A stretch of DNA of 64,000 bases, taken from an uncultured Gemmatimonadales bacterium (GTDB lineage: Bacteria; Gemmatimonadota; Gemmatimonadetes; Gemmatimonadales; GWC2-71-9). Location of the stretch: contig CAWHFW010000006.1 in assembly GCA_963828735.1 (NCBI GenBank), positions 1 to 64,000 of the forward strand, given 5' to 3'. The translations under genes were made by a program, and so were the position numbers. Positions 51,961 to 61,789 of this stretch are shown one piece after another (within the stretch, counting starts at the first letter, position 1; every line of letters begins with the position of its first letter). The notes below the pieces were generated by a model. It saw nothing but the letters and a program-made list of their open reading frames with translations. It made no database searches and had not been told where the DNA came from.

Positions 51961-53017
51961 GCTCGTGCTGGGCATCGAGACGTCGTGCGACGAGACCAGC
52001 GCCGCCGTCCTGCGCCGGACCGGCGATCGCGCCGAGATCGCGGGCCTTTCGATCCTCTCGCAGGACGTGCACCGGATCTTTGGCGGCGTGGTGCCGGAGC
52101 TGGCAAGCCGCGCGCACGTGCAGGCGATCGGGTCCGTCGTGGATCGAGCACTGGCCGACGCGGGCATCGGGCTCGGCGAGCTCGATGGGATCACGGTGAC
52201 CGCCGGCCCCGGCCTTGTCGGCGCACTGCTGGTCGGGGTGATGTACGGCAAGACGCTCGCGTTCAGCCTCGACCGGCCCCTGCTGGGGGTGAACCACCTC
52301 GAGGGACACCTCTTCGCCCCGACACTCGAGGATCCCGAGCTCGCGCCCCCCTTCGTCGGGCTACTGGTGAGCGGCGGCCACACCATGCTGCTCGACGTGC
52401 CCGCGTGGGGCGAGTATCGGCTGCTGGGGCAAACGCTCGACGACGCCGCCGGAGAGGCGTTCGACAAGGTGGCCAAGCTCCTCGGCCTCGGCTATCCGGG
52501 CGGCGCCCCGATCGAGCGCCTCGCGCGCGAGGGACACGCCGGCCGGTTCCGGTTTCCCCGGCCGATGCTGCAGGACCTCGACCGCGACGGACCCACTCGC
52601 TACGCTTTCTCGTTCAGCGGCCTCAAGACCGCGGTCCTTCGCGCGGTGCGTGAGGCCGAGCTGTCGCCGCAGGACCGGGCCGACGTGGCCCTGGCGTTCC
52701 AGGATGCGGCCAACGACGTGCTGGTCGCGAAGACGGCGTACGCGGTGGAGGCCCTCGGCTACTCGGCGGCGATGATCGGCGGGGGCGTAGCGTGCAACCG
52801 GGCGCTGGTCACTCGCCTGCGTGACCGGCTGGCGGGACAGGCTCGCGTGAGCGTAGCTTCCCCCCGGCTCAACACCGACAACGCCGCGATGATCGCCGCC
52901 GCCGGGGCATGGCGCCTGGCCCGTGGTGAGCGCAGCGGCTGGGACCTCGAGCCGCGCGACGACCTGCCTCTGCCTGGGCTCGTGGCCCCGATACCCGTTT
53001 CCGGATCCGACGCGTGA
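51953..53017 (+). CDS. tsaD: tRNA t6A threonylcarbamoyltransferase
   Basis: LGIETSCDET, GGVVPELASR, NHLEGH, SGGHT, FSFSGLKT, TDNAAMI. Confidence 0.98.
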   Translation: MAELVLGIETSCDETSAAVLRRTGDRAEIAGLSILSQDVHRIFGGVVPELASRAHVQAIGSVVDRALADAGIGLGELDGITVTAGPGLVGALLVGVMYGKTLAFSLDRPLLGVNHLEGHLFAPTLEDPELAPPFVGLLVSGGHTMLLDVPAWGEYRLLGQTLDDAAGEAFDKVAKLLGLGYPGGAPIERLAREGHAGRFRFPRPMLQDLDRDGPTRYAFSFSGLKTAVLRAVREAELSPQDRADVALAFQDAANDVLVAKTAYAVEALGYSAAMIGGGVACNRALVTRLRDRLAGQARVSVASPRLNTDNAAMIAAAGAWRLARGERSGWDLEPRDDLPLPGLVAPIPVSGSDA

Positions 53018-53922
53018 CGATCTATCCCTTCAAGATTCCGCTCCCGTTCTTTCCGCACGAGCTGACCGGCTACGGCCTGATGATGATGGTGGCCTTCCTC
53101 ATGGGAGGCTGGCTGGTGACGCTGGAGCTCCGACGCCGGCGGCTGGCCGAGGACTATTCGGCCGACATGATCGCCGCGGCGGTGATCGGCGGCGTCATCG
53201 GCGCGAAGCTCTGGTATGTCGCCCTCACGCGGGACACGGGGACCCTGTTCGAGCGCGGCGGGTTCGTCTGGTACGGCGGGTTCATCGGCGGCACGATCGC
53301 CGTGATCATCAACGGGTGGCGGCTGCGCGTGCCACTCCGCTGGACGATGCAGCTCGTCGCGCCGGCGCTGGCGGCAGCGTACGCCCTGGGCCGGGTCGGC
53401 TGCTTCCTCGTCAACGACGACTACGGGCGACCCAGCAACCTGCCCTGGGCCGTGAAGTTCCCGCAGGGCCTGCCTCCCTCGACCGCGGGGAACCTCCAGC
53501 ACCTCTTCGGGGTGCCGGTACCCGCAGGCATCGACCCCTCCACGGTGCTGGCCGTCCACCCGACGCAGCTGTACGAGACGGCCATGATGCTGGGCGCGTT
53601 CTTCGTCCTCTGGGCTTGGCGCCTGCGCGCCCGGCCCATCGGGTGGCTGTTCGGCGTGTACCTCGTGTTCGCCGGGTGCGAGCGGTTCCTGATCGAGATT
53701 CTTCGCGCCAAGGACGACCGGTTTCTGGGCCCGTTCACCCTGGCGCAGCTGACATCCGTCATACTGGTGGCGATCGGCGCCTGGGTCATGACCTTGTGGC
53801 ACCACGATCCCGAGCCGGCGCCAGGACCGTACCTGCGCCCCGACAACGACCCCTTGCTGTCAAAGAGCTCGACAGCTGAGGAAGTCGTTGCCACCAAAGG
53901 CGTTACGGGACGGAAGTCCTGA
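53014..53922 (+). CDS. lgt: Prolipoprotein diacylglyceryl transferase
   Basis: WYGGFIGG, GRVGCF, YG, HPTQLYE, RF..E..R. Confidence 0.95.
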   Translation: MTIYPFKIPLPFFPHELTGYGLMMMVAFLMGGWLVTLELRRRRLAEDYSADMIAAAVIGGVIGAKLWYVALTRDTGTLFERGGFVWYGGFIGGTIAVIINGWRLRVPLRWTMQLVAPALAAAYALGRVGCFLVNDDYGRPSNLPWAVKFPQGLPPSTAGNLQHLFGVPVPAGIDPSTVLAVHPTQLYETAMMLGAFFVLWAWRLRARPIGWLFGVYLVFAGCERFLIEILRAKDDRFLGPFTLAQLTSVILVAIGAWVMTLWHHDPEPAPGPYLRPDNDPLLSKSSTAEEVVATKGVTGRKS

Positions 53923-54000
53923 CCGTCGCAAAGGTCGACAAATTCCTGGTGGTAGCGCAAGTAGCAGCATGACGACAAGTCGTTAAATCTCAGTCAATTA
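53858..54000 (+). promoter_or_regulatory. Candidate sigma54 enhancer region: two TGT-N11-ACA-type sites and two IHF-like tracts
   Basis: tgtcaaagagctcgaca (53858-53874) and cgtcgcaaaggtcgaca (53924-53940); aagtcgttg (53882-53890) and caagtcgttaaatctcagtcaatta (53976-54000). Confidence 0.5.
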
Positions 54001-54015
54001 GCTTCGAGCAATGTT

Positions 54016-54030
54016 TGGCACTCGACTTGC
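54016..54030 (+). promoter_or_regulatory. Sigma54 (-24/-12) promoter
   Basis: TGGCAC-tcgac-TTGC with exact GG-N10-GC spacing, in an AT-enriched intergenic region. Confidence 0.85.
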
Positions 54031-54041
54031 CACTGTATAAG

Positions 54042-54185
54042 ACCGAGAAGTCGAAGACTTCATCGGAAAAGTGGTAGGTCGAAGAAGGGTGGAGCAGGCA
54101 CTTCGGCCTGTCTCCGTAAACTCAGGGGGCGATCTACCACCTCTCTACCGAACGGCCCGTCCATGATGGACGGGCCGTTCGTTTT
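54042..54185 (+). ncRNA. Putative sigma54-dependent structured small RNA (~145 nt)
   Basis: Starts at the predicted +1 of the sigma54 promoter; SL1 54043-54066, SL2 54071-54140, CU-rich linker, terminator; no plausible ORF. Confidence 0.7.
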
Positions 54186-54186
54186 G
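54149..54186 (+). terminator. Intrinsic terminator, 15-bp perfect stem plus U tract
   Basis: cgaacggcccgtcca-tga-tggacgggccgttcg-ttttg. Confidence 0.85.
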
Positions 54187-54203
54187 TATCGTCAGCTCGT
54201 GCG

Positions 54204-54689
54204 CTACGGCACGAGCAGATCTCGGTCGGCCACTACGATCCCGTCGCGGTCCGCGTACAAGTGGCAGCCGCGCGTGAAGGTGATCCCCGCGAACGTCACC
54301 GGAAGCCCCTGCTCCCCCGCCCCGGTCCTGCTGCTCTTCCGGGGCACGACGTCGAGCGCCTTGATCCCGATCGCGATGGCCCCGATCTCCCCGGTGTCGC
54401 GAATGCACCCGTGGATCACGATGCCGGTCCAGCCGTTCCGCAGACCCAGCGCGGCCAGGTTGCCGCCGACCAGCGCCGTCCGGCGCGACCCGCCTCCATC
54501 CACCACCAGCACCCGGCCGCGTCCCGGCGACTCCAGCACCTGCCGCACGAGCGCGTTGTCCTCGAGGACCCGCACGGTCTCGACCGCACCCGAAAAAGCG
54601 ACCGAGCCGCCCCAATCACGCAGGAGCGGCTCGGCAACGCGGACCTCCGCGCCGAACTCGTCGCAGAGATCGGCCGTGACCACGGGCAT
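54204..54689 (-). CDS. rraA: RraA family (RNase E regulator / HMG aldolase-like)
   Basis: TADLCD, EDNALV, VLVVDGGGS, GCIRD, LYADRDG. Confidence 0.93.
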   Translation of the reverse strand: MPVVTADLCDEFGAEVRVAEPLLRDWGGSVAFSGAVETVRVLEDNALVRQVLESPGRGRVLVVDGGGSRRTALVGGNLAALGLRNGWTGIVIHGCIRDTGEIGAIAIGIKALDVVPRKSSRTGAGEQGLPVTFAGITFTRGCHLYADRDGIVVADRDLLVP

Positions 54690-56848
54690 CAGCGGGGCGG
54701 TCGCTCGACGGGGACCGTGCGGTCGGCGCACAGGTGCCGGCGCATGCGCTCCACTTCGGCACGCATCTCGGCGAGGTCGGCCTCCATCCGCTCGAGCGAG
54801 CGAAGCAGCTCGACGACGGCGGCTCCGGTAACGGCGTCGGCCGGCACGCGCGCCGGCGGCGCGTGAGGCTCGGGCGTGCCGGCGACCGGTGGCCGCGGCT
54901 CGGGCACCATGACGGTGGTCCTCCCGCGCACCCGCCGCGGCTCGAGGACGAACGTCCATAGCAGCGCCACGATGGCCAGCACGACCAGGACCGCCTGCGC
55001 GCCGAGCGATTCGGCCGTCGGGTAGATGCCGAGCGCGGGGATGCGTGGCGCCCAGGGGAGAATCGTGGTCCCGATCAGATCGCCTTCCTGCAGCTCGGCG
55101 ATGCCCTTGCCGGCGAAGACGAACGCCATGTAGTAGAGGAAGGCGCTCGTGACGGCGAAGAACGGCTTGAGCGGGAGGCGCACCCCGAATCGGTTGATGG
55201 CGATGTAGACGCCGACCAGGATGATCGCGCCGGCGACGATACCGGCCACCACGGGCATCGTGGCGCCCGCTCCCGCCACGAACAGCGCCTTGTAGAACAG
55301 CACCGTCTCGAACCCCTCGCGATAGACCGCGAGGAAGGCAGCGGAGGCGAGGGCCAGGGCGGAGCCGCTGTCGAGCGCGTCCTGCACCTTGCTCTTCACG
55401 AAGCGGTTCCACTTGACCACTTCCATCTTGGACAGCAGCCAGTAGCTGACGTAGAACAGCACGCCGGTCGCGACCACCATCGTGGCGCCCTCGAGCGCCT
55501 CGCGGTGCGCCGGGCTCAGGACGAAGATGGTCTCGAGCGCCACGGCCGTGAGCAGGCTGGCGCCCACCGCCGCCCCGACACCGATATTGATGTCCCGCTT
55601 GCGGTGGCTCGCGCCCATCTTCACGAGGAAGGTCATCAAGGCGCCGACGATCAGGATCGCCTCGAGCCCCTCGCGCAGCATGATGATGAACGACTGGAGG
55701 AACAGGTTGAGCGAGGAATCCCGATCGCCCAGCATGCGCTCGGCGTTTTCGAGTCCGGCGTCGAGCTGCCGCCGCAGCGCCGTCAGCTCCGCCGGCGTCG
55801 CGCCTCCGGCGGCGCGGGTCCGGAGGGAGGCGAAGGCGGTCTCGAGCTCGGTGGCGAGATTCGGACTCTTGGCCCGCACCCCGGGCTCGACCTGCTCGAA
55901 GGTCATGTATGCATCGAACGCGCGCGCGCTCGCCGCGGGGTCCCCCGCGCGGGCAAGGGTGAACGCCGAGTCGAGCTGTCGCCGCACCTGTGCGAAGACC
56001 TCGGCGGTGGCGCCACCCGTGTGATCGGCCTGGAAGGTGCGCACGGCGGCGAGCCGGCCGAGCGCCTCGGGATCGGCGGCGTTGCCGGCGCCGAGGGCCG
56101 CGAGCACCTGGTCGTCCGACATTTTGCCGCTCGTGGCGAAGGCGCGGAGCGACGGCGGCACCTCGCCGCGAGGCGCGGGCAGCCGGAGCACGCTCGCGTA
56201 GAGCGCGGTGGCCCACCGATCTTCGACCGGCAAGCGGCCCTCGAACGCCGGCATCGCCGTGCCGACGGTGCCGATGCTGATGCGGCGGTAGTAGTCGAGC
56301 GGAGAGACGTCCCGAAGGGCCGACCCGTCGGCCAGGTTCGCGGGCGGGGGCGAGAGGCCGGCGGCCTGGGGACCGTCACCGCGGCCCACGGCGCCATGGC
56401 AGCCGGCGCAGTTCGCCTGGTAGACCTCGGCGCCGCGGGAGAGTGCGGGAGTGAGCGACGGCAGCTCATCGAGCGTGACGCCGAGCCGCGTCGTCAGGCC
56501 TTCGCCAAGCGACCGGACCCGCGCGTCGAGCGAATCGGGCGGCGCGGTCTCGGCGACGAGCCGCAGCAACCTGTCGATGTCGCCGGTCGCCGCTTTGGCC
56601 GCGTCCCCCGGCAGCAACGCTGCCGAGCGTCGGGCCTCCTGGAGGAAAAGAGTCGCCTCCTCCACCTCGGCCTTGGCCACGACCCGACCGTCTACGACTC
56701 CGACCCGGTACTCCTGGGCCGCCAGCTGCGCGGTGGCCGCTACCCGACGGGCAACGGGCGCCCGATCCTGAGCCACGCTGGGCTCCTGCTGCTGCGGCAA
56801 CGCCGCCGCTGCCAACAGGATCGGGAGGATGCCATCAATGAGAATCAT
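54689..56848 (-). CDS. Cytochrome c - FTR1 iron permease fusion (true start may be 56870 with one indel)
   Basis: CxxCH (CAGCH) with TAMPAF distal ligand; two RExxE motifs (REGLE, REGFE); ELQEG. Confidence 0.93.
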   Translation of the reverse strand: MILIDGILPILLAAAALPQQQEPSVAQDRAPVARRVAATAQLAAQEYRVGVVDGRVVAKAEVEEATLFLQEARRSAALLPGDAAKAATGDIDRLLRLVAETAPPDSLDARVRSLGEGLTTRLGVTLDELPSLTPALSRGAEVYQANCAGCHGAVGRGDGPQAAGLSPPPANLADGSALRDVSPLDYYRRISIGTVGTAMPAFEGRLPVEDRWATALYASVLRLPAPRGEVPPSLRAFATSGKMSDDQVLAALGAGNAADPEALGRLAAVRTFQADHTGGATAEVFAQVRRQLDSAFTLARAGDPAASARAFDAYMTFEQVEPGVRAKSPNLATELETAFASLRTRAAGGATPAELTALRRQLDAGLENAERMLGDRDSSLNLFLQSFIIMLREGLEAILIVGALMTFLVKMGASHRKRDINIGVGAAVGASLLTAVALETIFVLSPAHREALEGATMVVATGVLFYVSYWLLSKMEVVKWNRFVKSKVQDALDSGSALALASAAFLAVYREGFETVLFYKALFVAGAGATMPVVAGIVAGAIILVGVYIAINRFGVRLPLKPFFAVTSAFLYYMAFVFAGKGIAELQEGDLIGTTILPWAPRIPALGIYPTAESLGAQAVLVVLAIVALLWTFVLEPRRVRGRTTVMVPEPRPPVAGTPEPHAPPARVPADAVTGAAVVELLRSLERMEADLAEMRAEVERMRRHLCADRTVPVERPPR

Positions 56849-60442: not shown

Positions 60443-61789
60443 TCAGGAGGTGAGGTTGTAGCGCTTGATCTTGTTGATCAACGTGGCCCGCGAAATGCCC
60501 AGCTCGATGGCGGCGCGGGTGCGGTTGCCGGTGTGGTGCTTCAGCGTGCGCTCGATGTGCTGGCGCTCGAGGTCCTCGAGGCTGAGCGGCGTGTGACGAC
60601 GATCGCCGATGCCGGGACGCGCCCGGAACTCACCCGGCAGATGCTCGACGCTCACCGCGGCCGACCCACGGCCCAGGATGAGGGCGCGCTCCAGCACGTT
60701 ACGCATCTCGCGCACGTTGCCGGGCCAGCCGTAGGCCAGCAGGCGGTCGAGCACTTCGCTCGAGAGGGTCGGCGGGCCGTCCGGCAGCTCGGCCCGCAGG
60801 TCGTTCATGAGCCGGGTGATGAGGCCGAGTCGGTCCTCGCGCGAGCGATCGCGCACCGCAGGCAGCTGAAGCGGCATGACGCTCAGCCGGTAGTACAGGT
60901 CCTCCCGGAACCGGAGCTCCTCGACCTCGGTCTGCAGCTCCTTGTTCGTGGCGGCGACCAGCCGCACGTCCACGGTGATCTCGCGCGTGCCGCCGAGCCG
61001 GCGGAACGTCTTCGTCTCGAGCACTTTCAGCAGCTTGGGCTGGAGCTCGGGCGCGAGGTCCCCGATCTCGTCGAGAAAGATCGTGCCGTGGTCGGCGATC
61101 TCGAACAGGCCCTGCTTGCGATCCTTGGCGTCCGTGAAGGCGCCCTTCTCGTGCCCGAACAGCTCGGAGTCGAGGAAGGTCGCGTTGAGGCCGGCGCAGT
61201 TGACCTCCACGAACGGCGCGCGGGCGCGCGGGCTCAGGTCGTGGATCATCCGCGCCACCCACCCCTTGCCGGTGCCGCTCTCGCCGGTCAGGAGGACGGT
61301 GGTGCGCTCGCTCTGCGCCAGCAGCGCGACCTGGTGGGCGAAGTCCTGCATGCCCGACGACGACCCGAGTGAATCGAGCCCGTGGTCCGGTGCGCTCTGC
61401 ACCAGGAGCGCCTCGTTGACGCGGCGGAGCCGAGCCTTGTCGGCCACGCGCGCGGTGGCCGCGGCGAGGTGCTCCATGTCGACCGGCTTGGTCAGGAAAT
61501 TCTCGGCGCCGAGCTGCATGGCCCGGACCGCCGTGGCGACGTCGCTCTCGCCGGTCAACAGGATGACCGCCGCGTCCCGTTGGCGCAGGTGCTCGAGCAC
61601 CTCCATACCGTCCATGCCCGGCAACCGAAGGTCCAGGATGACCACTTCCGGCCGCAGTCGGTCGAACGTGGCCAGGCCCGCCTCCCCGCTCAGCTCCCGG
61701 GTAACCTCGTAGCTCAGGCGCTCGAAGTAGTTCCCGATGCTGCGCAGCACGTCGACATCGTCATCGATGAGGAGGACGGATCCGGCCAT
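60443..61789 (-). CDS. NtrC/AtoC-family sigma54-dependent response regulator
   Basis: Receiver IDDD / LDLRLP / KP; GESGTGK; SELFGHEKGAFTDA; FLDEIG; WPGNVRE; Fis-type HTH. Confidence 0.96.
   Translation of the reverse strand: MAGSVLLIDDDVDVLRSIGNYFERLSYEVTRELSGEAGLATFDRLRPEVVILDLRLPGMDGMEVLEHLRQRDAAVILLTGESDVATAVRAMQLGAENFLTKPVDMEHLAAATARVADKARLRRVNEALLVQSAPDHGLDSLGSSSGMQDFAHQVALLAQSERTTVLLTGESGTGKGWVARMIHDLSPRARAPFVEVNCAGLNATFLDSELFGHEKGAFTDAKDRKQGLFEIADHGTIFLDEIGDLAPELQPKLLKVLETKTFRRLGGTREITVDVRLVAATNKELQTEVEELRFREDLYYRLSVMPLQLPAVRDRSREDRLGLITRLMNDLRAELPDGPPTLSSEVLDRLLAYGWPGNVREMRNVLERALILGRGSAAVSVEHLPGEFRARPGIGDRRHTPLSLEDLERQHIERTLKHHTGNRTRAAIELGISRATLINKIKRYNLTS

Follow-up and report, generated by a model that had tools for sequence, protein, structure and literature searches.

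A small RNA gene with a conserved sigma-54-type promoter represents a new RNA family in the Gemmatimonadales

What is encoded in the spacer behind lgt is the question raised by this locus of an uncultured Gemmatimonadales bacterium. In the window (the whole stretch of DNA analyzed here, 64,000 nucleotides long), lgt lies on the + strand at 53014-53922 (Pfam LGT match, E = 1.9e-49) and is separated from a converging RraA-like gene (- strand, stop at 54204) by a gap of 281 nt (53923-54203). The G+C content of this lgt-rraA gap is 0.51-0.55 vs. approximately 0.70-0.74 in the flanks. The original prediction for this spacer was a novel, self-contained small RNA gene under the control of sigma-54 and an enhancer-binding protein, a proposal supported by promoter conservation, upstream dyads, the presence of rpoN and structural covariation. 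Positions 54042-54186 of the + strand very probably form an independent gene, with its own sigma-54 promoter and terminator, for a folded, non-coding RNA of ~145 nt with a regulatory function.

The RNA is bounded by a predicted start near 54042, as judged from the geometry of the promoter, and by a predicted end at 54186, as judged from the terminator. Its first hairpin, SL1 (54043-54066), has a conserved core of 6 bp (54047-54052 with 54056-54061) and is joined by an AAAA linker (54067-54070) to SL2 (54071-54140), a 70-nt hairpin. From its base upward, SL2 comprises a stem of 11 bp, an internal loop rich in purines, an invariant helix of 4 bp, a 3' bulge that varies among copies, and an apical stem of 9 bp capped by a hexaloop. 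In the window the strands of the internal loop read AAGAA and AGGGGG, the 3' bulge GUAA and the apical loop ACUUCG, and the base stem includes one G-U pair. A pyrimidine-rich tail, CUCUCUAC (54141-54148), is single-stranded in the predicted fold and leads into an intrinsic terminator (54149..54186) found by a terminator scan, with a 15-bp stem (54149-54181), a 3-nt loop and a terminal UUUUG. The promoter, SL1, linker, SL2 and terminator are all present where they had been predicted, and the minimum free energy fold of 54042-54186 reproduces this structure as SL1, SL2 and terminator (-78.7 kcal/mol, z = -6.9; 0/200 shuffles were as stable).

This fold is retained among relatives through compensatory change. 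In a MAFFT-based alignment of 29 same-genus transcripts, the RNAalifold consensus contains 42 pairs, 11 of them with compensatory changes; 98.5% of cells are paired vs. 32-48% with slid partners, and the covariation score is 0.164 vs. 0.100 in shuffles (0/500 as high). The terminator helix of these copies comprises 14 pairs with 98.3% of cells paired and compensatory changes in four. A broader family alignment of 54 copies from 51 loci was collected and aligned with a covariance model, R1, which describes SL1 and SL2 only (105 positions, promoter and terminator excluded). Across these loci compensatory changes are present in 18 of 30 pairs, 98.0% of cells are paired vs. 31-49% with slid partners, and the covariation score of 0.330 vs. 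0.145 is reached by none of 500 shuffles. Because this alignment was fitted to R1, the family counts are biased toward structure, whereas the MAFFT-based same-genus counts are free of this bias. Conservation of the element, with covariation across genera, is far above chance.

The individual helices differ in how they vary among the 54 copies. All six core pairs of SL1 show compensatory changes (92.7% of cells paired), whereas its outer CCGA/UCGG pairs are not conserved. Every cell of the SL2 base stem is paired (100%), with compensatory changes in 6/11 pairs, and the stem has been replaced wholesale between genera, for example from GUGGUAGGUCG/CGAUCUACCAC to GUCCCAGGACG/CGUUCUGGGAC; the apical stem shows such changes in 6/9 pairs. 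A repeat had also been described within the RNA, and GTCGAAGA is indeed found at 54050 and again at 54078 in the window. Since SL1 carries other sequences outside the window's genus, the GUCGAAGA duplication is peculiar to that genus.

The strand of the gene cannot be chosen from folding energy alone, because the reverse strand folds about equally well (z = -8.8). More informative are two SL2 pairs that are mostly G-U on the + strand, one in 42 and the other in 46 of the 54 copies; the pair 54078/54133, for instance, is G-U in 42/54, G-C in 7/54 and A-U in 5/54. As these conserved G-U pairs would be A-C on the other strand, the RNA is read from the + strand, in agreement with the earlier choice of strand, which had rested on a G-U pair. 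Sequence conservation begins at ~54043 (blastn query position ~54), adjoining the predicted start.

On that same strand the window holds an open frame of 31 codons with a GTG start (54071-54166), and a small protein might in principle be made from it. This reading is extremely improbable. The start is GTC in 7/54 copies, the frame is shifted in g28 and several other genera, an early stop interrupts it in three copies and the fold is retained throughout; substitutions track base-pairing and not codons. The locus had been thought to lack a credible ORF, and no ORF is conserved among the 54 copies.

The phylogenetic distribution of the RNA is narrow. A blastn search with 53990-54200 detected the element (E < 1e-20, 82-93% identity) in 32 of 36 species genomes from the window's genus; the remaining four are 63-85% complete, and no convincing match was found in 24 genomes of two sister families. 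Neighboring proteins in the same loci are 53-83% identical and the flanks of the promoter region cannot be aligned, and thus the RNA is under much stronger constraint than its surroundings. R1 matched 25 of 151 genomes across the order, including 24/61 in the window's family, and none in two sister families of the order (0/62 and 0/27). In a sample of the whole phylum 28/151 genomes matched, including 27/71 in the window's family, with 0/79 in 11 other Gemmatimonadota families. The blastn and R1 tallies include the unpublished genomes G003 (no strong match) and G112 (match), and the conclusions are independent of both. Among the genomes sampled, the RNA is confined to one family of Gemmatimonadales, in which the carrier genera are g1 (10/11 genomes), g19 (4/5), g23 (5/5), g28 (4/4) and g33, g38 and g42 (1/1 each). 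A 30-bit match in g35 was rejected as false because the invariant loops are absent from it. From the 54 diverse copies a second model was built, and in 22 genomes without an R1 match it gave no convincing result.

A pattern of the two loop motifs, CUCAGGGGGC and GAAGAAGRG, was also scanned over one genome per prokaryote species and occurred in at least 118 stretches, from which 80 loci were listed. Among the loci listed, the model matched 42, all titled Gemmatimonadota, Gemmatimonadales, Gemmatimonadaceae or Gemmatimonadetes, which corresponds to 42/44 of the loci with such titles and 0/36 of those with other titles. As these genomes overlap those already sampled, the loci of the scan are not an independent sample.

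Loss and multiplication of the RNA have both occurred within its range. In one same-genus genome (G064, 99% complete) lgt abuts rraA, the RNA gene is gone and no model match is found, and thus the RNA is dispensable in that organism. Genera without matches have different sequence after lgt; in one of them (L077, G066 C5), the spacer consists of a GAGGTRAGAGGT repeat run, a hairpin and then the reverse complement. In g19, two SL1-SL2 modules lie 4-7 nt apart between a common promoter and terminator (G094, G171), and tandem modules in one transcript are also found in six named MAG loci. One g23 genome (G124) possesses three copies, the third of which lies upstream of grpE-dnaJ, away from lgt. 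In four fragmented MAGs (G036, G022, G017, G014), the RNA is found at contig ends or on two short contigs; such contig breaks inside the RNA are probably due to an identical core, common to co-occurring species, that breaks assemblies.

The RNA corresponds to no family in Rfam, as had been claimed from inspection. At the gathering score, zero families were matched in the 64-kb window, and a permissive search of 53850-54300 (E up to 10) returned only chance-level matches of mir-228 and ROSE_2 to the terminator hairpin (E = 4.7 and 5.9). Among 12 loci of other genera (E up to 0.1), the only match was a sub-threshold one to anti-hemB, at 27 vs. 49.5 bits and upstream of the RNA. Full-text searches for literature on sRNAs in Gemmatimonadota, Gemmatimonadetes or Gemmatimonas found no paper. 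The RNA is classed here as a new family among the sRNAs with putative sigma-54 control.

Several identities with known RNAs were considered and rejected. The bacterial SRP RNA of this genome (RF00169) is encoded at C2:443954-444051. A 6S RNA is an end-closed rod of ~180 nt with a large central bubble, whereas the RNA described here has unpaired ends and a 70-nt SL2 with a 5/6-nt loop; RF00013 (6S) had zero matches genome-wide, so that a 6S locus elsewhere could not be demonstrated. Mimicry of 16S rRNA helix 18, which shares AAGAAG...AGGGGG with SL2, was discarded because 13 sites in the genome fit the loose pattern.

Sequencing runs were searched for traces of a transcript, and at most 0.22 of 23 sampled words were shared. 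Contigs from four soil or rhizosphere metatranscriptome runs, at 85% likeness and thus representing copies of relatives, cover 54043-54186 at a depth of 2-5. One of these contigs includes the promoter, two pass the terminator and one folds back at the terminator palindrome, a pattern that is compatible with DNA carry-over or read-through and that speaks neither for nor against a discrete transcript.

The promoter, TGGCAC-N5-TTGC (54016-54030, + strand), holds the GG of the -24 element (TGGCAC, 54016-54021) and the GC of the -12 element (TTGC, 54027-54030) exactly 10 nt apart, the spacing of sigma-54 promoters. The motif [T/C]GGCA[C/T]-N5-[C/T]TGC is present in 30/30 same-genus loci aligned with MAFFT, amid sequence that is otherwise unalignable. 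At family scale, a sigma-54 motif ([T/C]GGCAY-N6-TGC) is found within 60 nt upstream of the R1 start in 45/54 copies; its distance from that start is 24-46 nt in the 45 copies and 24-34 nt in 44 of them. The nine copies without the motif are five of g23, two extra copies in one g23 genome and two second tandem modules. All g23 genomes (5/5) exhibit TTGACA-N17-TAnnnT instead, with a -10 box that ends 4-9 nt before the R1 start, while the two extra copies in one g23 genome have weaker sigma-70-like boxes, as judged by eye. Because the g23 -10 box sits just before the same R1 start, the two promoter types would place the same RNA 5' end.

The machinery for such a promoter is encoded in the genome, which contains rpoN (a 522-aa frame that matches PF04552 at 214.7 bits) and 14 full-length matches to PF00158, the sigma-54 interaction domain of enhancer-binding proteins. 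Strict TGGCAY-N5-YTGC sites are rare, with only 17 in the 4.78-Mb genome, and others among them precede plausible targets such as a pilin-like gene. Two of these strict promoter matches, at G000 C5:1126651 (-) and C5:1119126 (-), lie before the pilin-like gene (MSNRKGFTLIELL...) and a neighboring gene, an arrangement that suggests a sigma-54-controlled type IV pilus cluster. Two further strict matches, at G000 C5:582615 (-) and C5:1573873 (-), are followed by ~150-300 nt without a long open frame, and could represent leaders or further sRNAs.

Enhancer-binding proteins act from upstream sites, and two putative ones are found here. A distal dyad, TGTCAAAGAGCTCGACA (TGTC-N9-GACA; 53858..53874), falls within the 3'-terminal part of the lgt frame, and a proximal dyad, CGTCGCAAAGGTCGACA (53924..53940), begins 66 bp after it and ~92 bp before TGGCAC. 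The yGTC-N9-GACA dyads are thus ~92-93 and 158 bp upstream of TGGCAC, within the 80-200 bp expected for activator sites. Sites were called in the 45 sigma-54-type loci when at least 7/8 dyad letters were present, with distances anchored on TGGCAC. By this measure the distal dyad is found 148-162 nt before TGGCAC in 23/45 loci, the proximal dyad 91-95 nt before it in 14/45, and at least one of the two in 28/45. A subgroup of loci carries the symmetric variant TGTA-N9-TACA, as expected for the site of a dimer. The genome as a whole contains 33 perfect and 1183 one-off dyads, which form seven pairs spaced 58-74 bp apart; only one of the seven precedes a sigma-54-like promoter, and that is the pair of the RNA gene. 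Elsewhere, a perfect TGTC-N9-GACA dyad (TGTCGAAACTGTTGACA) at G000 C3:57746 lies in a stretch of low G+C content (0.52) and could be a further site for the activator of the RNA gene.

The dyads are absent from the g19 loci. CCGGAA/TTCCGG inverted repeats upstream in g19 were considered as an activator site; in at least one locus a T-run follows the repeat and a sub-threshold Rfam match extends over it, and it may simply be the lgt terminator. An orphan response regulator of the NtrC type with a sigma-54 activation domain is encoded at 60443-61789 (-), 6.3 kb from the RNA, and is syntenic in the four genera examined; no kinase gene was found beside it at the locus. It is 82-83% identical in g28, as against 51-65% for neighboring proteins there (more for thiG and tsaD), and 82-95% identical between two sampled dyad-carrying genera. 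Its candidacy as the activator of the RNA gained no support, since the dyads are missing from a genus whose copy has an identical recognition helix.

In regulatory logic the nearest analogue is the GlmY/GlmZ system of the Enterobacteriaceae (GlrK/GlrR = QseE/QseF, IHF and RapZ), to which the resemblance is one of architecture alone. In each case a stand-alone gene with a sigma-54 promoter encodes an sRNA of roughly 150-200 nt, and this RNA combines two hairpins with a single-stranded stretch and a terminator. For GlrR, three TGTCN10GACA binding motifs have been described at over 100 bp upstream of the sigma-54 promoter, with IHF sites in between (PMC3045617). The gene described here likewise has putative activator dyads at distances of over 90 bp, two compared with three, with the same half-sites and a spacer of 9 rather than 10 nt; an IHF-consensus-like CAR-N4-TTR is located 25-26 nt before TGGCAC in 17/44 loci. 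The same article describes a subgroup of species in which sigma-70 promoters replaced the sigma-54 promoters of GlmY/GlmZ, and g23 appears to parallel this replacement. In contrast, GlmY/GlmZ show no sequence or model similarity to this RNA (Rfam, E up to 10), RapZ was not found in this genome, the phylum is different and the RNA gene has no kinase-regulator pair as a neighbor. At 284 bits, the regulator encoded nearby falls far below the GlrR cut-off of 763; it is a generic NtrC-family protein, below every equivalog cut-off.

The part of the RNA that has changed least lies in SL2. Its 5' strand, CGAAGAAGGGU (54080..54090, + strand; consensus CGAAGAAGRGU), is near-invariant, the departures in 54 copies being a G/A alternation at one position and single C-to-A and U-to-C changes. 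Opposite to it lies ACUCAGGGGGCG (54120..54131, + strand), in which CUCAGGGGGC is unchanged in 53/54 copies. Alone among the helices, the 4-bp one that separates the internal loop from the bulge does not covary (double changes in 0/4 pairs). Neither the length nor the sequence of the 3' bulge is constant, and the apical loop is moderately conserved. These two strands form a putative recognition module.

A mechanism can be proposed from these features. An enhancer-binding protein would bind the two yGTC-N9-GACA dyads, ~93 and 158 bp upstream of TGGCAC, and switch on sigma-54 RNA polymerase at TGGCAC-N5-TTGC; a role for this polymerase is suggested by the motif, its spacing and its conservation. 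The transcript would begin near 54042, end at the hairpin 54149-54181 and fold into SL1, linker, SL2, pyrimidine tail and terminator, as the covariation indicates. Its working part would be the two-stranded purine-rich loop of SL2 with the non-covarying 4-bp helix (CGAAGAAGRGU opposite ACUCAGGGGGCG), which a partner, most likely a protein, would recognize as a folded motif. In this way the RNA would serve as a trans-acting decoy or titrator, following the logic of GlmY-RapZ or CsrB-CsrA, and would not depend on a linear seed. Taken as a whole, a sigma-54-controlled regulatory RNA whose SL2 module is bound by a partner and which acts as a decoy or titrator in trans is the best explanation, and one to which we give an even chance.

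For the manner of action on its own, recognition of the SL2 loop module by a protein or as a folded motif is preferred tentatively, at somewhat under an even chance. It is favored because both loop strands and the adjacent helix are frozen, a linear seed drifts and the module is duplicated as a unit. A protein partner would be new, as Hfq, CsrA, ProQ, RapZ (PF03668) and RRM_1 were not found in this 97.5%-complete genome. Binding of a ligand, or kissing contacts between SL2 and a target, would likewise be compatible with the invariant loops.

Alternatively, the RNA may be a base-pairing sRNA that works without a chaperone, its tail or conserved loop pairing with Shine-Dalgarno or purine-rich regions of mRNAs while SL2 serves as a scaffold or for stability. 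The tail is single-stranded in the predicted fold and 81% pyrimidine on average, CCUC (including the last C of SL2) is present in 29/54 copies, and the absence of Hfq does not exclude pairing sRNAs. GlmZ, moreover, has its pairing site between the second hairpin and the terminator, a position equivalent to that of the tail. The tail had been described as CU-rich and resembling an anti-Shine-Dalgarno sequence; its pyrimidine richness (0.81) is confirmed, but its sequence drifts even within a genus (CUCU, UCAC, UGAC, GUAC, AUCU) and CCUCC is found in only 5/54 copies. The invariant letters, furthermore, lie on both strands of the SL2 internal loop and not in the tail, and a crude genome scan for 11-/12-mers complementary to the loop strands and apical loop (at most one mismatch) revealed no stand-out site. 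Pairing of this kind is somewhat less likely than recognition of SL2.

Another comparison is with the Vibrio Qrr sRNAs, which are multi-copy and depend on LuxO, sigma-54 and Hfq. Qrr sRNAs act by Hfq-assisted pairing via a conserved linear seed. They share with the RNA described here a sigma-54 promoter, a short terminator-ended sRNA and a copy number that varies between species; they differ in that here Hfq was not found, the conserved letters are in an internal loop and there is no Rfam match. A Qrr that escaped sigma-54 is reported in a preprint (bioRxiv 10.1101/2021.07.01.450815). Among sRNAs that titrate proteins, CsrB/RsmZ (CsrA) and CrcZ (Hfq/Crc; CbrB) carry repeated binding modules in each RNA, as do the tandem copies found here. 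CrcZ is also sigma-54 dependent, and the AAGAAG loop of SL2 resembles the A-rich ARN motifs. The RNA described here departs from these systems in holding only one or two modules and no GGA-in-loop repeats, and searches of its genome for CsrA and Hfq found neither.

Invariant internal-loop letters framed by freely covarying helices are also the kind of conservation seen in aptamers, and the two modules per transcript in some genomes recall tandem riboswitch aptamers. SL2 could thus accommodate a small molecule or ion in a binding pocket, and the RNA would then be a free-standing sensor or sponge. If so, a sigma-54 signal would produce a trans-acting sensor or sponge RNA with a riboswitch-like domain and no attached mRNA. 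This alternative is improbable. An expression platform is lacking, since the perfect 15-bp terminator hairpin has no evident alternative pairing; SL2, whose single internal loop has strands of 5 and 6 nt, offers little room for a pocket; and the riboswitch families of Rfam have no match. In all loci examined the genes after the RNA (rraA, FTR1-cytochrome c) are on the opposite strand and converge on it, and no same-strand downstream gene was found in them of the kind that a cis-regulatory leader or riboswitch would control.

These converging genes raise the further alternative of action in cis, in which sigma-54 transcription toward the rraA/FTR1-cytochrome c operon would give read-through antisense RNA or transcriptional interference. 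In the window, a 719-aa frame at 54689-56848 (-) encodes a cbb3-type cytochrome c domain fused to an FTR1 iron permease. In carriers the RNA gene follows tsaD-lgt and faces this FTR1-cytochrome c gene, with rraA between the two only in g1; the FTR1-cytochrome c gene is conserved and convergent on the RNA in most loci examined and adjacent to it in each genus examined (10/10 20-kb loci), and some metatranscriptome contigs run beyond the terminator. However, the entire 20-kb block is syntenic in these 10/10 loci from four genera, and thus adjacency to a neighbor carries no specific message. Interference needs neither a strong conserved terminator nor an invariant SL2, and G124 has its third copy at a different site, upstream of grpE-dnaJ. 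Action in cis is therefore very improbable, more so than a binding pocket.

Recognition of SL2 by a partner in trans thus remains the preferred reading. Gemmatimonadota is an abundant soil phylum, and this RNA constitutes a well-supported new family within it with a clear gene plan and with a putative dedicated enhancer-type input that is unique in the genome. The internal-loop motif of SL2 is invariant enough to serve directly as bait for the partner, and because the usual sRNA-binding proteins were not found in the genome, that partner could reveal a new post-transcriptional regulator. The exchange of sigma-54 for sigma-70 promoters in one genus and the natural deletion in one species provide ready-made comparisons.
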